Virus record (IMG/VR): IMGVR_UViG_3300021431_002946 | Location: 225,291 to 289,290 of that record | Length of the DNA: 64,000 nucleotides | DNA from: a virus | Lineage: Duplodnaviria; Heunggongvirae; Uroviricota; Caudoviricetes | Reading direction: 5' to 3' (one strand) | In this document: one piece after another, positions 16,216-23,692 of the stretch | Numbering within the stretch: the first letter of the stretch is position 1 | Layout: each line of letters starts with the position of its first letter | The notes under the pieces: model-generated | The model's database searches: none | The model's input: only the letters and a program-made list of their open reading frames with translations | What the model was told of the DNA's origin: nothing | Position numbers and translations under genes: made by a program

Positions 16216-17763
16216 ATGAATATATTAAATGACGATTGGTTATTTGTTAAATATAATACTGGAAAAGTAAGGCAAATATCTGTTAGACAGGCATTTCAAG
16301 ACGCTGAAAAAATTAAGAATATTGAAACACCTACATTTCATGGTACAACTGTAAGTTTATATGATGTACCAGTTATTCAGTTTCTTTGTATTCTTTTATT
16401 GTCTGCATATTTTAAGCCTAAGAATAAGTTTAAGGCTGCAGATAAATATTTTAATAAAGAATTAACTGAAAAAGGTTGGGATCTTAAAGTTATTAATGAT
16501 TATTTTGATAAATGGGAAAAGAGATTTAATCTTTTTGACAACAAATATCCATTTTTACAAGATATTAGATTAAAGAATGAAATTAAAGAAGATAGTAAAG
16601 AAGATTTAAGTTTTATTTCAAAATCAAGTCTTTTAGCTCCAGGCGGAAATAATCTTATATTTGAACATAATTCAGCTTCAAAAACAGATTTAGTTGATTT
16701 TAAGCCTGAAGCAGATGAATTAGTATATATTTTGTTGTACCTTAGAACACTTGGAACATCTCCAATGGCAGCACAATATCCATATAAAGCAATGAGTGCA
16801 AATGCAACATTGTTTATATTAAATTATGGTAAAAATCTTAAAGAAACTATTATTGCAAATTGCTTACCTTTAAGAGATAGTGAACAAGGTACAATTTATG
16901 ATAAACCTATTTGGGAATTTAATAATTTTGATGAATTATTAGATTATGATACAGGTGACATTTATAAAAATGTTCTTCTGTGTACTTATTTTCCATATCC
17001 AATTTATATACAGTATGATAAGGAAGTAAAAAATATTTTACTTGCTAAATCTATTAGTGCTGGAAAAACGAATTATGATATATTTGATGCAGAAACAAGA
17101 AATAGTATAAGTAGTAGTTATGCATATACAAATCCTTGGGCAATAAAGAAATATGTTATAGATAAGAAAACAGAAGTTGGTACTTGGAGTTATAAAGAGT
17201 GGAATAATACATTAAAACTTATAAATCTTTGTATTGAAATTACACAAAAGAATAATGAAGGTTTTATATGTAATTTATTCTCAAGTGATTTTCAAGCAAA
17301 TGATAATGTAAAGTCAATAATTTATTATAGACAATATGATGGAATGAAATCTAATGTATTATCTTTTGGTAAGTATAATGTAGAGAAAGGCATTCTTAAT
17401 AAACTTCAAAAAGAAAAGAATCATGAAATTGCAGTTGAATTCCAAAATATGTTTAATAAAATACAATCTAAATTTGCAATCTTTAATGATTCTGGAATAA
17501 ATAAATCAAGTCTTGAAGATATAAAATTATTGTTTGCAAAGAATGCTGAGAATTATTTCTTTACAACATTTATTGAAAACATAAATAAAAAAGGTTATAT
17601 AGATGAAGTAACAAAATTATTTATAGATGATGCAAAGAAAGTAGTTAAAAAGTTAGAAGCAGTAACAAATAATCCACTTAAATATGCTGAAGCGTATAGA
17701 AAATTTTGCGGAAGTTTAAATAAATTAAAGGAAGGAAATGATAATAATGGCAGAGAATCTTGA
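16216..17763 (+). CDS. cas8e: type I-E Cascade large subunit Cas8e (Cse1/CasA)
   Basis: MNILNDDWL.V, RFNLFD.KYPFLQ, LFILNYGKNLKETI, PW motifs; operon position. Confidence 0.9.
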   Translation: MNILNDDWLFVKYNTGKVRQISVRQAFQDAEKIKNIETPTFHGTTVSLYDVPVIQFLCILLLSAYFKPKNKFKAADKYFNKELTEKGWDLKVINDYFDKWEKRFNLFDNKYPFLQDIRLKNEIKEDSKEDLSFISKSSLLAPGGNNLIFEHNSASKTDLVDFKPEADELVYILLYLRTLGTSPMAAQYPYKAMSANATLFILNYGKNLKETIIANCLPLRDSEQGTIYDKPIWEFNNFDELLDYDTGDIYKNVLLCTYFPYPIYIQYDKEVKNILLAKSISAGKTNYDIFDAETRNSISSSYAYTNPWAIKKYVIDKKTEVGTWSYKEWNNTLKLINLCIEITQKNNEGFICNLFSSDFQANDNVKSIIYYRQYDGMKSNVLSFGKYNVEKGILNKLQKEKNHEIAVEFQNMFNKIQSKFAIFNDSGINKSSLEDIKLLFAKNAENYFFTTFIENINKKGYIDEVTKLFIDDAKKVVKKLEAVTNNPLKYAEAYRKFCGSLNKLKEGNDNNGRES

Positions 17764-20980: not shown

Positions 20981-23692
20981 ATGGACAAAAATTTAACAGT
21001 ACTTTTATTGTTTGGTGATGCTCAAGCAGTAGAAGTAAAAATGCGTAGATATTTTTATGAAGTAAAAGATAATGTATTTGTCAGCACAATGTCTGAACAA
21101 ATGAGAAATGAAGTTTGGTCAGAGCTCGAAGCTTCTGGTGTAGAAGCTAATATGATTATTCAAGCTGATAATGAACAAGGTTTCATTTATAAAACAACAA
21201 AAGAAGATGCAGATTTTAATATTAAAGATGTTAATGGATTCATTTTACCTATTAACTCTACTGCAAATTCAATAATTGATATTGATGATCTTTATGCAAA
21301 ACAAGATAGATCTTTAATTGATCATATTTTAGATGTTGCTTGTATTGCAGAAGCTTTAATGAGAGAAGGTCGTGCATATAATATGACAAAGTCTATTGCA
21401 GAAGCAACTGGAGTAGATTTTGATACAGTAGTTAGTTCTATTTGTTGGCTTTGCGCATTACATGATATTGGTAAAGCGCATCCTTATTTTATTGCGAAAA
21501 TGTATTCAAATTCTCTTAATATCAAACAAGTTGAAATTTATAAGAGATTAAAAGCACAGAAATTAGTTCCTGATGGAGATTATTCTTCATTTAGGCATGA
21601 ACGTTTTTCTAGAGACATTCTTAAAAAATATTTTGCAAAAAATAATTATCCAATTGAAGCAAATGATTTTGCAAATATAGTAGCGTATCATCATCAAGGT
21701 AAAGATGAATTTGATTTTTCAGATACAATTACTTTGAAAGATGGACCTTGGCTTGCAATGCATGATCAAATTATTGATCTTGTAGAAAAAGAATATCATT
21801 TTGATAAGACATTTGCAGCAAATAAGAATTTTGTAAATGGTGTTAATTACTCTATTCTTTCTATTATGGTTACAGCTGACTGGATTGCTTCTGGTGAAAT
21901 TTGGAAGACAAAAGTTAGTATGACTCCAGATAGAAAATATTGTGCAAAACGTTTCTTAATAGAAAATGCTTTAATGTATAGGCCTATGAATGAAAGGTTT
22001 AGAAAAACACAGTGGCAAGATGCATTTACATTTATGCCTAATGAAATGCAGATTAAAACAATTAAAGCATCAAAAGATAATCCTGAATTAATGATTATTG
22101 AATATCCTTGTGGTGGTGGTAAGACAGAAGCTGCTCTTGCTGCTGCAATTCATATGGGATATGATAGATCTGGTATATTTATCGCTACTCCTACAATGGC
22201 TACAGCAAAAGGTATGACACTTAGAATGAATGATTTAGTACATAAAATGAGTTTAGGTTTTATTGTACCAGAATTTGATTCAAGTAACCTTTGGTCAGAT
22301 GATGATATGTCAAAAATTCCAGCTGAATTATGGACCTCAAAATCTAGACATAGAATGCTTTATCCATTTGCAGTAGGTACAGTTGACCAGGTTCTTAAAA
22401 CTATGTTGTATTATAGATATGCTTGTATTGGTCTTATGGGACTTTCAGATAAAGTCTTGATCATAGATGAGGTTCATGCTTATGATTCATATATGAAGAC
22501 AGAAATTAAAATGCTTCTTAAATGGTGTAAATTTTTACATATTCCAGTAATTATGCTTTCTGCTACATTACCTACAATTACTAAAATTGATATGTTAAGA
22601 ACTATGGGTTGTAGAAGAGAAGATTTAAATATCTCAAATGATTATCCTCTTATTACAACATTTAAGAATAATAAATGTAATGACTTTACAGTTAAATGTG
22701 AAGGCAAAAAATTTAAAGTTAATATTATTGAAACAGACAATTATGAACAAGAGTGGGAAAATGCAATTGTAAAGAATAGAAGAGGTTGTAATGCTTTTAT
22801 TGAAGGTACAGTTGATCAAACTTGGCTAATTTATAATATTGCAAAGAAACATAAAATTAATCCAATGATGTTTAATGGTAGAGATACTCTTGAACATAAA
22901 GAAAATAAGACACTTACTCTACTTAAGAAATTAGGTAAAAATAGAGCAAAACGTCCAAAAAGATTAACATTAACTGCTACATCTATTATTGAGCAGTCTC
23001 TTGATATTGACCTTGATAGAATGTTTACTTGTATTGCTCCTATTGATCTTCTTATTCAAAGATTCGGTCGTGTACAAAGACATGATGACGCAGGTACAAT
23101 AAGAGAAAATGAAACTATTGATAACCCAATCAATATTATCATTTCAACAAAATTTATAGATATGCCTTGTAGTAAAATTTATGGTGTACCTATTCTTAAA
23201 AAGACAATTGAAGTACTAAGAGGTAGAACTGAAATTGATACAGTAAAAGATGCTAGATTACTTATTGATGCAGTTTATAGTGATCCAACTATTGTTGAAA
23301 GACCTAAACTCATTGTTGCAGCAAAATTTAATACAATTGAAGAACCTAACAAAAATGCTATGTTTGATAATGACAATAGTAAATATGCTAGATTTACTCA
23401 AATGCAAAATGAGACTAGATTTGAAACATATCCTACAGTTTCAATTGCTATAATTGATGATCCAGATTATGTTATGGATATTGAAACAAACTATCCTAAA
23501 ATTAGAAAAATTATGAAGTCTCAAGTAGTAACTATTTCAGAATTCCAAAATTCTGATATTGAAGTTGCTCCTCTCATATTTGAAAATCATAAAACATTAT
23601 CTGAAATCAATTTCTACCTAAAAGACGATTTATTAAAACAAAATATTATATTAACAGAAGATGGTTTAAAATTTGGTAAAAATCATATATAA
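20981..23692 (+). CDS. cas3: Cas2-Cas3 fusion (I-E-type Cas2 domain, HD nuclease, SF2 helicase)
   Basis: N-terminal about 90 aa resemble I-E Cas2 (YEVKDNVFV...RNEVW...DNEQGF); LHDIGK, HERFS, HHQG, ADWIAS, GGGKTEAAL, DEVH, SAT, SLDID, QRFGRVQRH. Confidence 0.9.
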   Translation: MDKNLTVLLLFGDAQAVEVKMRRYFYEVKDNVFVSTMSEQMRNEVWSELEASGVEANMIIQADNEQGFIYKTTKEDADFNIKDVNGFILPINSTANSIIDIDDLYAKQDRSLIDHILDVACIAEALMREGRAYNMTKSIAEATGVDFDTVVSSICWLCALHDIGKAHPYFIAKMYSNSLNIKQVEIYKRLKAQKLVPDGDYSSFRHERFSRDILKKYFAKNNYPIEANDFANIVAYHHQGKDEFDFSDTITLKDGPWLAMHDQIIDLVEKEYHFDKTFAANKNFVNGVNYSILSIMVTADWIASGEIWKTKVSMTPDRKYCAKRFLIENALMYRPMNERFRKTQWQDAFTFMPNEMQIKTIKASKDNPELMIIEYPCGGGKTEAALAAAIHMGYDRSGIFIATPTMATAKGMTLRMNDLVHKMSLGFIVPEFDSSNLWSDDDMSKIPAELWTSKSRHRMLYPFAVGTVDQVLKTMLYYRYACIGLMGLSDKVLIIDEVHAYDSYMKTEIKMLLKWCKFLHIPVIMLSATLPTITKIDMLRTMGCRREDLNISNDYPLITTFKNNKCNDFTVKCEGKKFKVNIIETDNYEQEWENAIVKNRRGCNAFIEGTVDQTWLIYNIAKKHKINPMMFNGRDTLEHKENKTLTLLKKLGKNRAKRPKRLTLTATSIIEQSLDIDLDRMFTCIAPIDLLIQRFGRVQRHDDAGTIRENETIDNPINIIISTKFIDMPCSKIYGVPILKKTIEVLRGRTEIDTVKDARLLIDAVYSDPTIVERPKLIVAAKFNTIEEPNKNAMFDNDNSKYARFTQMQNETRFETYPTVSIAIIDDPDYVMDIETNYPKIRKIMKSQVVTISEFQNSDIEVAPLIFENHKTLSEINFYLKDDLLKQNIILTEDGLKFGKNHI

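Follow-up and report, generated by a model that had tools for sequence, protein, structure and literature searches.

Fusion of Cas2 to Cas3 is regarded as a hallmark of subtype I-F among CRISPR-Cas systems. The I-F Cas2/3 proteins of P. aeruginosa, Pectobacterium and Vibrio phage ICP1 (PDB 5B7I, 8FLJ and 8K22) carry Cas2, a HD nuclease and a helicase in that order, whereas canonical I-E systems, such as those of E. coli K-12 and T. fusca (PDB 4QQW and 6C66), encode Cas2 as a separate gene beside cas1 and place cas3 before cse1. Within I-E, Cas2e is joined to a second enzyme in Cas2-DEDDh (PDB 8FY9-8FYD), where a C-terminal exonuclease serves adaptation. The CRISPR systems of huge phages have compact arrays and as a rule lack Cas1, Cas2 and Cas4 (Al-Shayeb et al. 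2020, PMC7162821), and huge-phage systems without adaptation genes are also known from PMC11656645. The locus reported here lies in a stretch of 64,000 nucleotides (nt), hereafter the window, spanning positions 225,291 to 289,290 of the 467,383-bp IMG/VR virus record IMGVR_UViG_3300021431_002946 (Caudoviricetes). It encodes an I-E Cascade, a short CRISPR array and a Cas2-Cas3 protein, P0001, of 903 amino acids (aa), with no cas1.

In its genome of more than 200 kb, its compact arrays and its missing adaptation genes the phage resembles those described in PMC7162821, from which it differs in having kept a Cas2 domain despite the loss of cas1; that paper contains no occurrence of 'I-E' and mentions no I-E Cas2-Cas3 fusion. 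Such a fusion was not found described in the openly searchable literature, where only I-F cases were encountered, and a classification supplement could mention one. Cas2-DEDDh differs from P0001 in the partner of its Cas2e, which in P0001 is an interference nuclease-helicase in a genome where adaptation is absent.

The Cas2-Cas3 protein and the Cascade operon

A single open reading frame (ORF) encodes the Cas2e, HD nuclease and helicase domains of P0001 (Table 1). The initial annotation, made from the letters of the window, had assigned the first 90 or so residues to the I-E Cas2 family, and family models and profiles now identify this N-terminal domain as a true Cas2e. A profile built from 25 relatives matched solved I-E Cas2 structures with E values of 1e-15 to 4e-13, among them Cas2-DEDDh (8FYC), the best PDB match of the domain (E 1.5e-15), and E. 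coli Cas2 (4P6I, 5DS4 and others). The domain is too diverged for single-sequence searching, so that a family profile was needed: searched alone with phmmer against 1.8 billion proteins, it yielded just 12 matches, mostly to the same fusion family. In an AlphaFold model of P0001, with a predicted local distance difference test (pLDDT) score of 84.9, a ferredoxin-like domain (aa 5-72) is followed by a disordered linker (aa 76-97, pLDDT <50) and then by Cas3.

The HD residues H115, H161-D162, H206, H237-H238 and D300 are invariant throughout the family, and the helicase motifs are intact, comprising Walker A (G378-G380-K381-T382), the DEVH motif (D496-E497-H499), S527-A528-T529 and motif VI (R694/R697). 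P0001 keeps every residue that is invariant in 29 family members, in the HD domain as well as in the Walker A GxGKT, DEVH, SAT and VI motifs, which bears out the earlier description of the HD and superfamily 2 (SF2) helicase motifs as intact. Model NF007248 matched P0001 at E 1e-61, below its equivalog cut-off, and the I-F Cas3 model TIGR02562 gave no match to P0001. The whole predicted structure was nearest to the I-E Cas3 of T. fusca, with a template modelling (TM) score of ~0.7, compared with ~0.4 for I-F Cas2/3. P0001 shares with the I-F proteins the order Cas2, HD and helicase, and in relatives of the locus that bear cas1 this gene adjoins cas2-3, as in I-F. Unlike I-F, the parts are of I-E type throughout: the Cas2 (PF09707/TIGR01873), the Cas1 of the relatives (TIGR03638) and a Cse-type Cascade. 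The fusion is an I-F-like architecture assembled from I-E parts, and these parts, together with the poor structural match to I-F, indicate that it is convergent rather than inherited from I-F.

The gene order of the window is cse1, cse2, cas7e, cas5e, cas6e, a mini-array of five spacers and cas2-cas3, and all six cas genes are open reading frames with their catalytic motifs intact. Pfam scores for Cas7e, Cas5e and Cas6e exceeded the cut-offs and the best NCBIfam matches of all three were I-E models. Cse2 fell just below its Pfam cut-off; the call is backed by clear Cse2 genes at the same position in two relatives, L003 and L022. No I-F effector family (Csy1-3/Cas6f) was found among the Pfam and NCBIfam matches of the locus. 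A full Cascade, an array and a 903-aa gene, as first annotated, are thus all present.

Canonical I-E systems share with this locus the Cse1, Cas7e, Cas5e and Cas6e families and probably Cse2, hairpin repeats of ~29 nt (here 26-29), 32-nt spacers, an 8-nt 5' handle, a Cas3 of HD and SF2 helicase domains, a pattern at every sixth spacer position that fits Cascade pairing, and the lack of cas4. The locus departs from them in that Cas2 is fused to Cas3, cas1 is missing, cas3 follows cas6e, the array lies within the operon, further mini-arrays are scattered and the repeats are not identical. The I-E effector families and the intact Cas3 motifs agree with its first description as an unusual I-E variant that looks competent for interference.

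Adaptation genes and the fusion family

With PF01867 and TIGR03638, which gave matches in control genomes, cas1 was found neither in the window nor in the complete 467,383-bp genome, so that the absence first noted for the 64 kb extends to the whole record. A clade-specific Cas1e hidden Markov model (HMM), derived from the family's own Cas1 and run with --max against six frames of the whole genome, gave a best E of 0.07. PF01930 (cas4) had 0 matches genome-wide, and no second cas2 is present anywhere in the genome, Cas2e occurring solely as a domain of Cas3. The I-E adaptation module, that is cas1e with a separate cas2e, is accordingly absent from this genome. The record ends in direct terminal repeats, and its completeness is estimated by CheckV as 100%.

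Homologues of P0001 number thousands. Among the 99 best matches analysed the Cas2e-Cas3 fusion is present in at least 64 protein clusters, many of them on phage-like contigs of 100-790 kb, and the gene neighbourhoods of the relatives display the same operon throughout. P0001 alone retrieved no relatives from IMG/VR, and an alignment query retrieved distant ones only. In a tree of the Cas3 part the family, including derivatives without Cas2, stood apart (support 100) from five I-E Cas3 sequences of bacteria, and its deepest branches are fused forms. The layout, although not found catalogued in the literature searched, is not a single oddity.

Ten fused loci have a Cas1e gene adjoining cas2-3 (L003, L004, L020, L022, L024, L025, L029, L032, L036 and L104). 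Cas1 proteins of these relatives scored 271 and 302 bits with TIGR03638 (I-E; cut-off 215.6) and 63-65 bits with the I-F model (cut-off 150). The cas1-bearing loci possess long arrays of 11-28 repeats with a period of 61 (8 repeats in the second array of L104; the L022 contig stops before any array), and the repeats are mostly identical in L020 and L003, the two arrays read base by base. As the layout normally includes Cas1e in this family, the phage represents a reduced derivative and not the prototype.

L104 lies on scaffold 1 of Lachnospiraceae bacterium NK4A144, a cultured rumen isolate (AUJT01000001.1, ~372-381 kb), and was the sole fused case among the 80 best matches in bacteria sampled at one genome per species. 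It has the same operon and fusion as the phage, in the order cse1-cse2-cas7-cas5-cas6e, array, cas1e, cas2-cas3, array; its fusion protein is 38% identical to P0001 over residues 3-898. The locus differs in being bacterial, in having Cas1e, in retaining an Arg-Gly pair in Cas2 (see below) and in its longer arrays, of 11 and 8 repeats. This scaffold, of 466 kb, was considered as a related huge phage because it is close in size to the phage genome, and this was rejected (GC content 41.6%, genome of 4.1 Mb, only 31 of 615 phage ORFs matching). Of all matches between the phage and NK4A144, much the closest is a 405-aa ORF of the phage, near 330136 (+) of the record and outside the window, which shares 81% identity with an NK4A144 chromosomal protein; it may be a host-type gene acquired recently and a clue to the host.

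Two further bacterial I-E loci, L105 (a Selenomonas ruminantium metagenome-assembled genome, 7346-10674) and L152 (8950-13279), encode separate cas1, cas2 and cas3 in that order, adjacent or overlapping, and this unfused arrangement is a plausible precursor of the fusion. At the other extreme, forms of ~800 aa without a Cas2 domain are scattered through the Cas3 tree, indicating repeated deletion of the domain, checked in gene context for L005 and L006 only. In these sister phages (L005, L006; 8977-12690) Cas3 is 799 aa long and the Cas2 domain is wholly gone; cas6e and cas3 are separated by 16 repeats, another 4 follow cas3, and no cas1 or cas2 lies within 10 kb.

Alignment to PDB Cas2e structures places E18-V19 of P0001 at the positions of R16-G17 of E. 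coli Cas2. R16-G17 contact the incoming prespacer, and the R14A and R16A mutants of E. coli Cas2 acquire no spacers according to PMC8390960, which cites the crystal-structure papers. All seven standalone Cas2e sampled retain the Arg-Gly pair, in an x-R-G-x loop after strand 1, as do 48 of the 64 fused proteins. The tree unites P0001 with P0003-P0007 (support 100) in a clade whose loop reads V-E-V-K or V-E-A-K, so that R16 is replaced by Glu, and this clade is nested among cas1-bearing forms that retain the pair. The pair is likewise missing from a second, independent clade comprising P0021, P0030 and P0034 (support 100). In the loci of both clades that were viewed (the window, L019, L184, L185, L021 and L023) there was no cas1 in the stretch and there were only mini-arrays or none, which is suggestive of two independent co-losses of Arg-Gly and cas1.

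Arrays, inherited spacers and surrounding features

All five full repeats of the window array fold to a hairpin of 6-9 bp, and each terminates in GTTTTTCT bar the degenerate last one, whose GGAGGTTTAC end is kept in the sister phages L019 and L184. Standard repeat finders missed the array because no two of its repeats are alike. The stems vary by compensatory changes at four positions or more, hairpin and handle being preserved. At least eight mini-arrays are present in the genome, holding ~21 spacers in total and all on the + strand; the seven outside the window occupy intergenic gaps and have 1-4 spacers each. Three arrays, the window's and those at 22.08 and 432.98 kb, open with a truncated repeat reduced to its handle.

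Five spacer families are common to the arrays of this genome and those of L019 and L184, whose Cas3 sequences are 74% and 86% identical to that of this phage, and diverged spacer copies also occur between different arrays of this genome. Every sixth guide base is flipped out in I-E Cascade and is not paired with the target. Among 38 variable sites in the five families, 17 fall at positions 6/12/18/24/30, where 5.9 were expected (binomial p = 2e-5); positions 3/9/15/21/27 were not enriched (p = 0.23). The lack of enrichment at odd multiples of three rules out codon third positions of a coding target as the cause of the differences. The excess of variation at the unpaired sixth positions indicates that the guides are old, inherited and selected for Cascade pairing, and it confirms the spacer register, which had been assigned beforehand from the handle. 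As read from the spacers, continuing acquisition would be expected to yield the reverse picture.

The GC content of the spacers (34-41%, against 25-30% for the phage) hints at foreign targets. Searching the window array against 50,697 phage records produced matches at chance level only. Spacers matched only paralogous spacers of other arrays within their own genome, and only orthologous spacers within all relatives' loci retrieved. Three degenerate spacer patterns, with N at every sixth base, had 0 matches in IMG/VR, as had one such pattern in 401 Lachnospiraceae genomes.

Table 1. Features of the cas locus, in window coordinates, and repeat elements elsewhere, in genome coordinates (kb)
Feature	Position	Strand	Basis or remark
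14-nt site, 13/14 match to seed of spacer 4 (20809-20840), mismatch at position 12	16155-16168	+	61 nt upstream of cse1
Promoter-like motif (consensus CTATTTAATTATAMTA)	16173-16188	+	28 nt before cse1 start
cse1/cas8e, large Cascade subunit, 515 aa	16216-17763	+	PF09481 E 2.8e-23 (above cut-off); TIGR02547 E 4e-12 (below its cut-off)
cse2/cas11, small subunit, 168 aa	17738-18244	+	PF09485 E 1.3e-4, 22.8 bits (cut-off 24.6)
cas7e/casC, backbone subunit, 409 aa	18265-19494	+	PF09344 E 3e-42; TIGR01869 E 5e-33
cas5e/casD, 181 aa	19507-20052	+	PF09704 E 1e-20; TIGR01868 E 6e-18
cas6e/casE, precursor CRISPR RNA endonuclease, 194 aa	20033-20617	+	PF08798 E 2e-18; TIGR01907 E 1e-10
Truncated first repeat, 3' handle (GGTTTTTCA) only, no hairpin	20602-20630	+	No stable fold
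Mini-array, five 32-nt spacers and five non-identical hairpin repeats	20631-20927	+	8-nt handle GTTTTTCT
Spacers	20631-20662, 20692-20723, 20750-20781, 20809-20840, 20868-20899	+	32 nt each
Hairpin repeats, 26-29 nt	20663-20691, 20724-20749, 20782-20808, 20841-20867, 20900-20927	+	Period ~60 nt
Best sigma-70-like promoter of the region, TTTACA-17-TATAAT, 11/12	20922-20950	+	Consensus match only; -35 box in degenerate terminal repeat
cas2-cas3 (P0001), single ORF, 903 aa	20981-23692	+	Cas2e-HD-helicase Cas3
Cas2e domain, aa 1-95	20981-21265	+	PF09707 (I-E/CT1978-type Cas2), aa 19-89, 34.5 bits (cut-off 24.7)
Linker, aa 96-110, poorly conserved, predicted disordered	21266-21310	+	Least conserved segment of family
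Cas3 HD nuclease domain, aa 111-310	21311-21910	+	PF18019 E 1e-24 (Cas3_HD aa 111-308); TIGR01596 above cut-off
Cas3 SF2 helicase and C-terminal domain, aa 340-903	21998-23689	+	TIGR01587 E 5e-50 (above cut-off); PF22590; PF00270 (DEAD)
Terminator-like hairpin	24616-24645	+	Consensus scan only; follows unannotated 266-aa ORF 23789-24589 downstream of cas2-3
Mini-arrays of genome	18.27, 20.28, 22.08, 35.85, 37.32, 38.81, 245.9 (window's array), 432.98 kb	+	
Solitary I-E repeats	33.35, 54.70, 442.55 kb	+	

Eleven copies of the CTATTTAATTATAMTA motif were found in the window against 1.7 expected (including those at 8490, 14950, 16173 and 24656), mostly on the + strand and just upstream of genes. 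The genome as a whole has 59 matches, 47 of them on the + strand, and the motif also lies upstream of genes in L019, L021 and L023; it is probably a promoter used by the transcription machinery of the phage itself. The best sigma-70-like promoter of the region probably drives cas2-3, judging from its match to the consensus. Terminator-like hairpins detected by a consensus scan flank the segment from 15.39 to 24.65 kb.

Several other features of the window were recorded. Two homing-endonuclease-like ORFs (25193-25705 and 26771-27643) stand either side of a short FtsK/SpoIIIE-like fragment (25724-26320); the sister phage L019 has, downstream of cas2-3, an intact FtsK_SpoIIIE gene of 266 aa. A PIN-PhoH fusion protein is encoded at 39273-40697. 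The family A DNA polymerase is split over two consecutive ORFs, with the exonuclease and the start of the polymerase domain in the one (41608-43119) and the remainder in the other (43398-44564). A 413-aa protein with a match to sigma-70 region 4 is encoded at 49733-50974. A single + strand block at 52380-64000, with a GC content of 35-40%, contains 53 transfer RNA genes that cover most amino acids.

Interpretation and significance

Taken together, we consider it likely that the locus belongs, as a reduced member confined to interference, to a distinct I-E lineage whose Cas2e became fused to the N-terminus of Cas3e independently of the I-F fusion. The cas operon would be transcribed from a phage promoter, and Cas6e would cleave, at the repeat hairpins, the RNA made from the array beside the cas genes and from the seven or more other mini-arrays. 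Cascade (Cse1, Cse2, Cas7, Cas5 and Cas6e), loaded with a CRISPR RNA whose 5' handle measures 8 nt and whose guide measures 32 nt, would then pair with DNA in 5+1 segments and recruit Cas2-Cas3, by which the target would be nicked and shredded. The phage itself would add no new spacers. Its ancestor would have had cas1e beside cas2-3, as sister phages and NK4A144 still have; after the clade lost cas1 and the prespacer-binding Arg-Gly, a fixed set of guides would change only through point mutations and recombination among arrays. The analysis shows what the genes are, that cas1 is absent genome-wide, how the relatives compare, that the Arg-Gly motif is lost, how substitutions are distributed in the spacers and that the Cas2 domain is under selection; that targets are actually cut, what the Cas2 domain does and what the guides are aimed at are inferred.

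The Cas2 domain has been retained under purifying selection and is not decaying: three pairs of sequences from the clade without cas1 gave ratios of nonsynonymous to synonymous substitution (dN/dS) of 0.09-0.22 for this domain, compared with 0.14-0.23 for the HD, helicase and C-terminal parts. Since this selection has persisted after the loss of cas1, the domain probably has another role, unrelated to adaptation, which is most likely the dimerisation or stabilisation of Cas3. The more specific proposal that the domain has been converted to interference in this clade, acting as a module that Cas3 requires for its dimerisation or control, is possible and rather doubtful. Modelled as a homodimer, the domain scored 0.46, the best of three controls reaching 0.02, with contacts agreeing between runs by at least 75% and a partner pLDDT of at least 68; the mark was attained by 20 of the 30 proteins whose solved structures are pairs of one chain and by one of the 23 solved as single chains. 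This pass may reflect only likeness to, or memory of, solved Cas2 dimers.

Several points weigh against an interference-only system. The dN/dS values were obtained at dS of 0.5-1.4, which is partly saturated, and strong purifying selection on the Cas2 domain would be equally expected if it worked with Cas1 supplied by the host. The link between the losses of Arg-Gly and cas1 comes from a small sample of two independent clades, and in L002, L008 and L042 both Arg-Gly and long arrays persist without a cas1 in the stretch viewed. Absence of cas1 from an entire genome was established for this phage alone, since L019, L021, L023, L184 and L185 were viewed to at most 10 kb on each side. Each phage holds private spacers, which either differential loss or occasional acquisition in trans could equally explain. 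None of the collections searched yielded a protospacer, so that interference is itself inferred. The phage status of the record derives from the IMG/VR and CheckV call and from the terminal repeats; the capsid and terminase families PF03237, PF17289, PF05065 and PF07068 had 0 matches in the genome, but these models often miss the proteins of huge phages, and the control for PF07068 gave no match in any genome.

The initial annotation had left two outcomes open, namely that the system borrows host Cas1, possibly through the tethered Cas2, or that it has lost adaptation. Loss fits the arrays, the inherited spacers and the replacement of R16 by Glu, whereas borrowing is unsupported by them. Adaptation in trans would have the tethered Cas2 dimerise and bind a host Cas1e, so that the phage gains spacers in hosts with a compatible I-E system. 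It would account for purifying selection that bears on the Cas2 domain no less strongly than on the enzymatic domains, for the predicted dimer (with the same reserve about solved Cas2 structures) and for spacers seen in one phage and not in others; a Cas1 that works naturally with a Cas2-Cas3 fusion exists in plausible host groups, as one rumen Lachnospiraceae bacterium carries the same fusion with its own Cas1e, and type IV-A3 plasmids are cited in PMC11656645 as acquiring in trans without an adaptation module. It is nevertheless unlikely. The equivalents of R16 and G17 are Glu and Val, fixed clade-wide, where in E. coli R16A already abolishes acquisition; integration duplicates a repeat exactly, and no identical pair of repeats is present. 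The arrays are tiny and scattered, some beginning with a truncated repeat and no leader, and the spacers they share are separated by point mutations, whereas the cas1-bearing relatives, with their long and, where read, mostly uniform arrays, are wholly different.

Retention of guides across diverged phages, with no external target in the collections searched, could also be explained if the guides served regulation, repressing partly matching sites of the phage or its host with Cas3 rarely or never engaged. The seed site upstream of cse1 (Table 1), which lies by the promoter motif, is a suggestive candidate for self-repression of the cas operon by Cascade. At position 7 guide and site covary, both being C in L019 and T in this phage, and the site upstream of cse1 in L185 also has the C form (L019:5096; L185:4612). 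Of 20 guides, however, a single one had a seed match near the promoter motif, a result equalled by 10 of 50 controls with shuffled seeds, so that such a match is by itself not rare. Longer partial self-matches of the guides were not in excess either (1 against 4 in the control), and the idea that partial self-targeting of phage promoters is common among the guides was rejected accordingly. Intact HD and helicase motifs under purifying selection are moreover hard to explain without cleavage, and a purely regulatory system appears very improbable. A relic on its way out, its Cas2 domain and arrays being leftovers, might be suspected from the missing cas1, the fragmented arrays, the degenerate and partly truncated repeats and the outright deletion of the Cas2 domain in many relatives. 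Such decay is scarcely credible for six open genes with intact catalytic motifs and dN/dS of ~0.1-0.2 across the protein, in a system whose repeat hairpins are preserved by compensatory changes, whose spacers vary preferentially at unpaired positions and whose operon has been kept across a clade with Cas3 diverged to 74% identity. The loss of adaptation thus fits the data, and borrowing of host Cas1 is unlikely.

The findings carry several implications. A Cas2-Cas3 fusion has arisen a second time, inside I-E, and marks a sizeable lineage in rumen and gut bacteria and in huge phages. NK4A144 offers a natural, culturable version of the full system, in which it could be tested whether tethering Cas2 to Cas3 links interference with primed adaptation, a coupling proposed for I-F. 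The family further provides a graded natural series, from cas1 with the fusion, through fused forms that lack cas1 and are mutated in the DNA-binding motif, to Cas3 with Cas2 deleted, and this series can reveal what Cas2 contributes to Cas3 apart from adaptation. The excess of variation at sixth positions is a sign, legible in sequence alone, that the CRISPR system of a metagenomic phage is in use, and could be transferred to other uncultured systems. Should the conversion of the Cas2 domain prove true, it would be the first Cas2 kept for a task other than acquisition, in a convergent I-E counterpart of the I-F Cas2/3.

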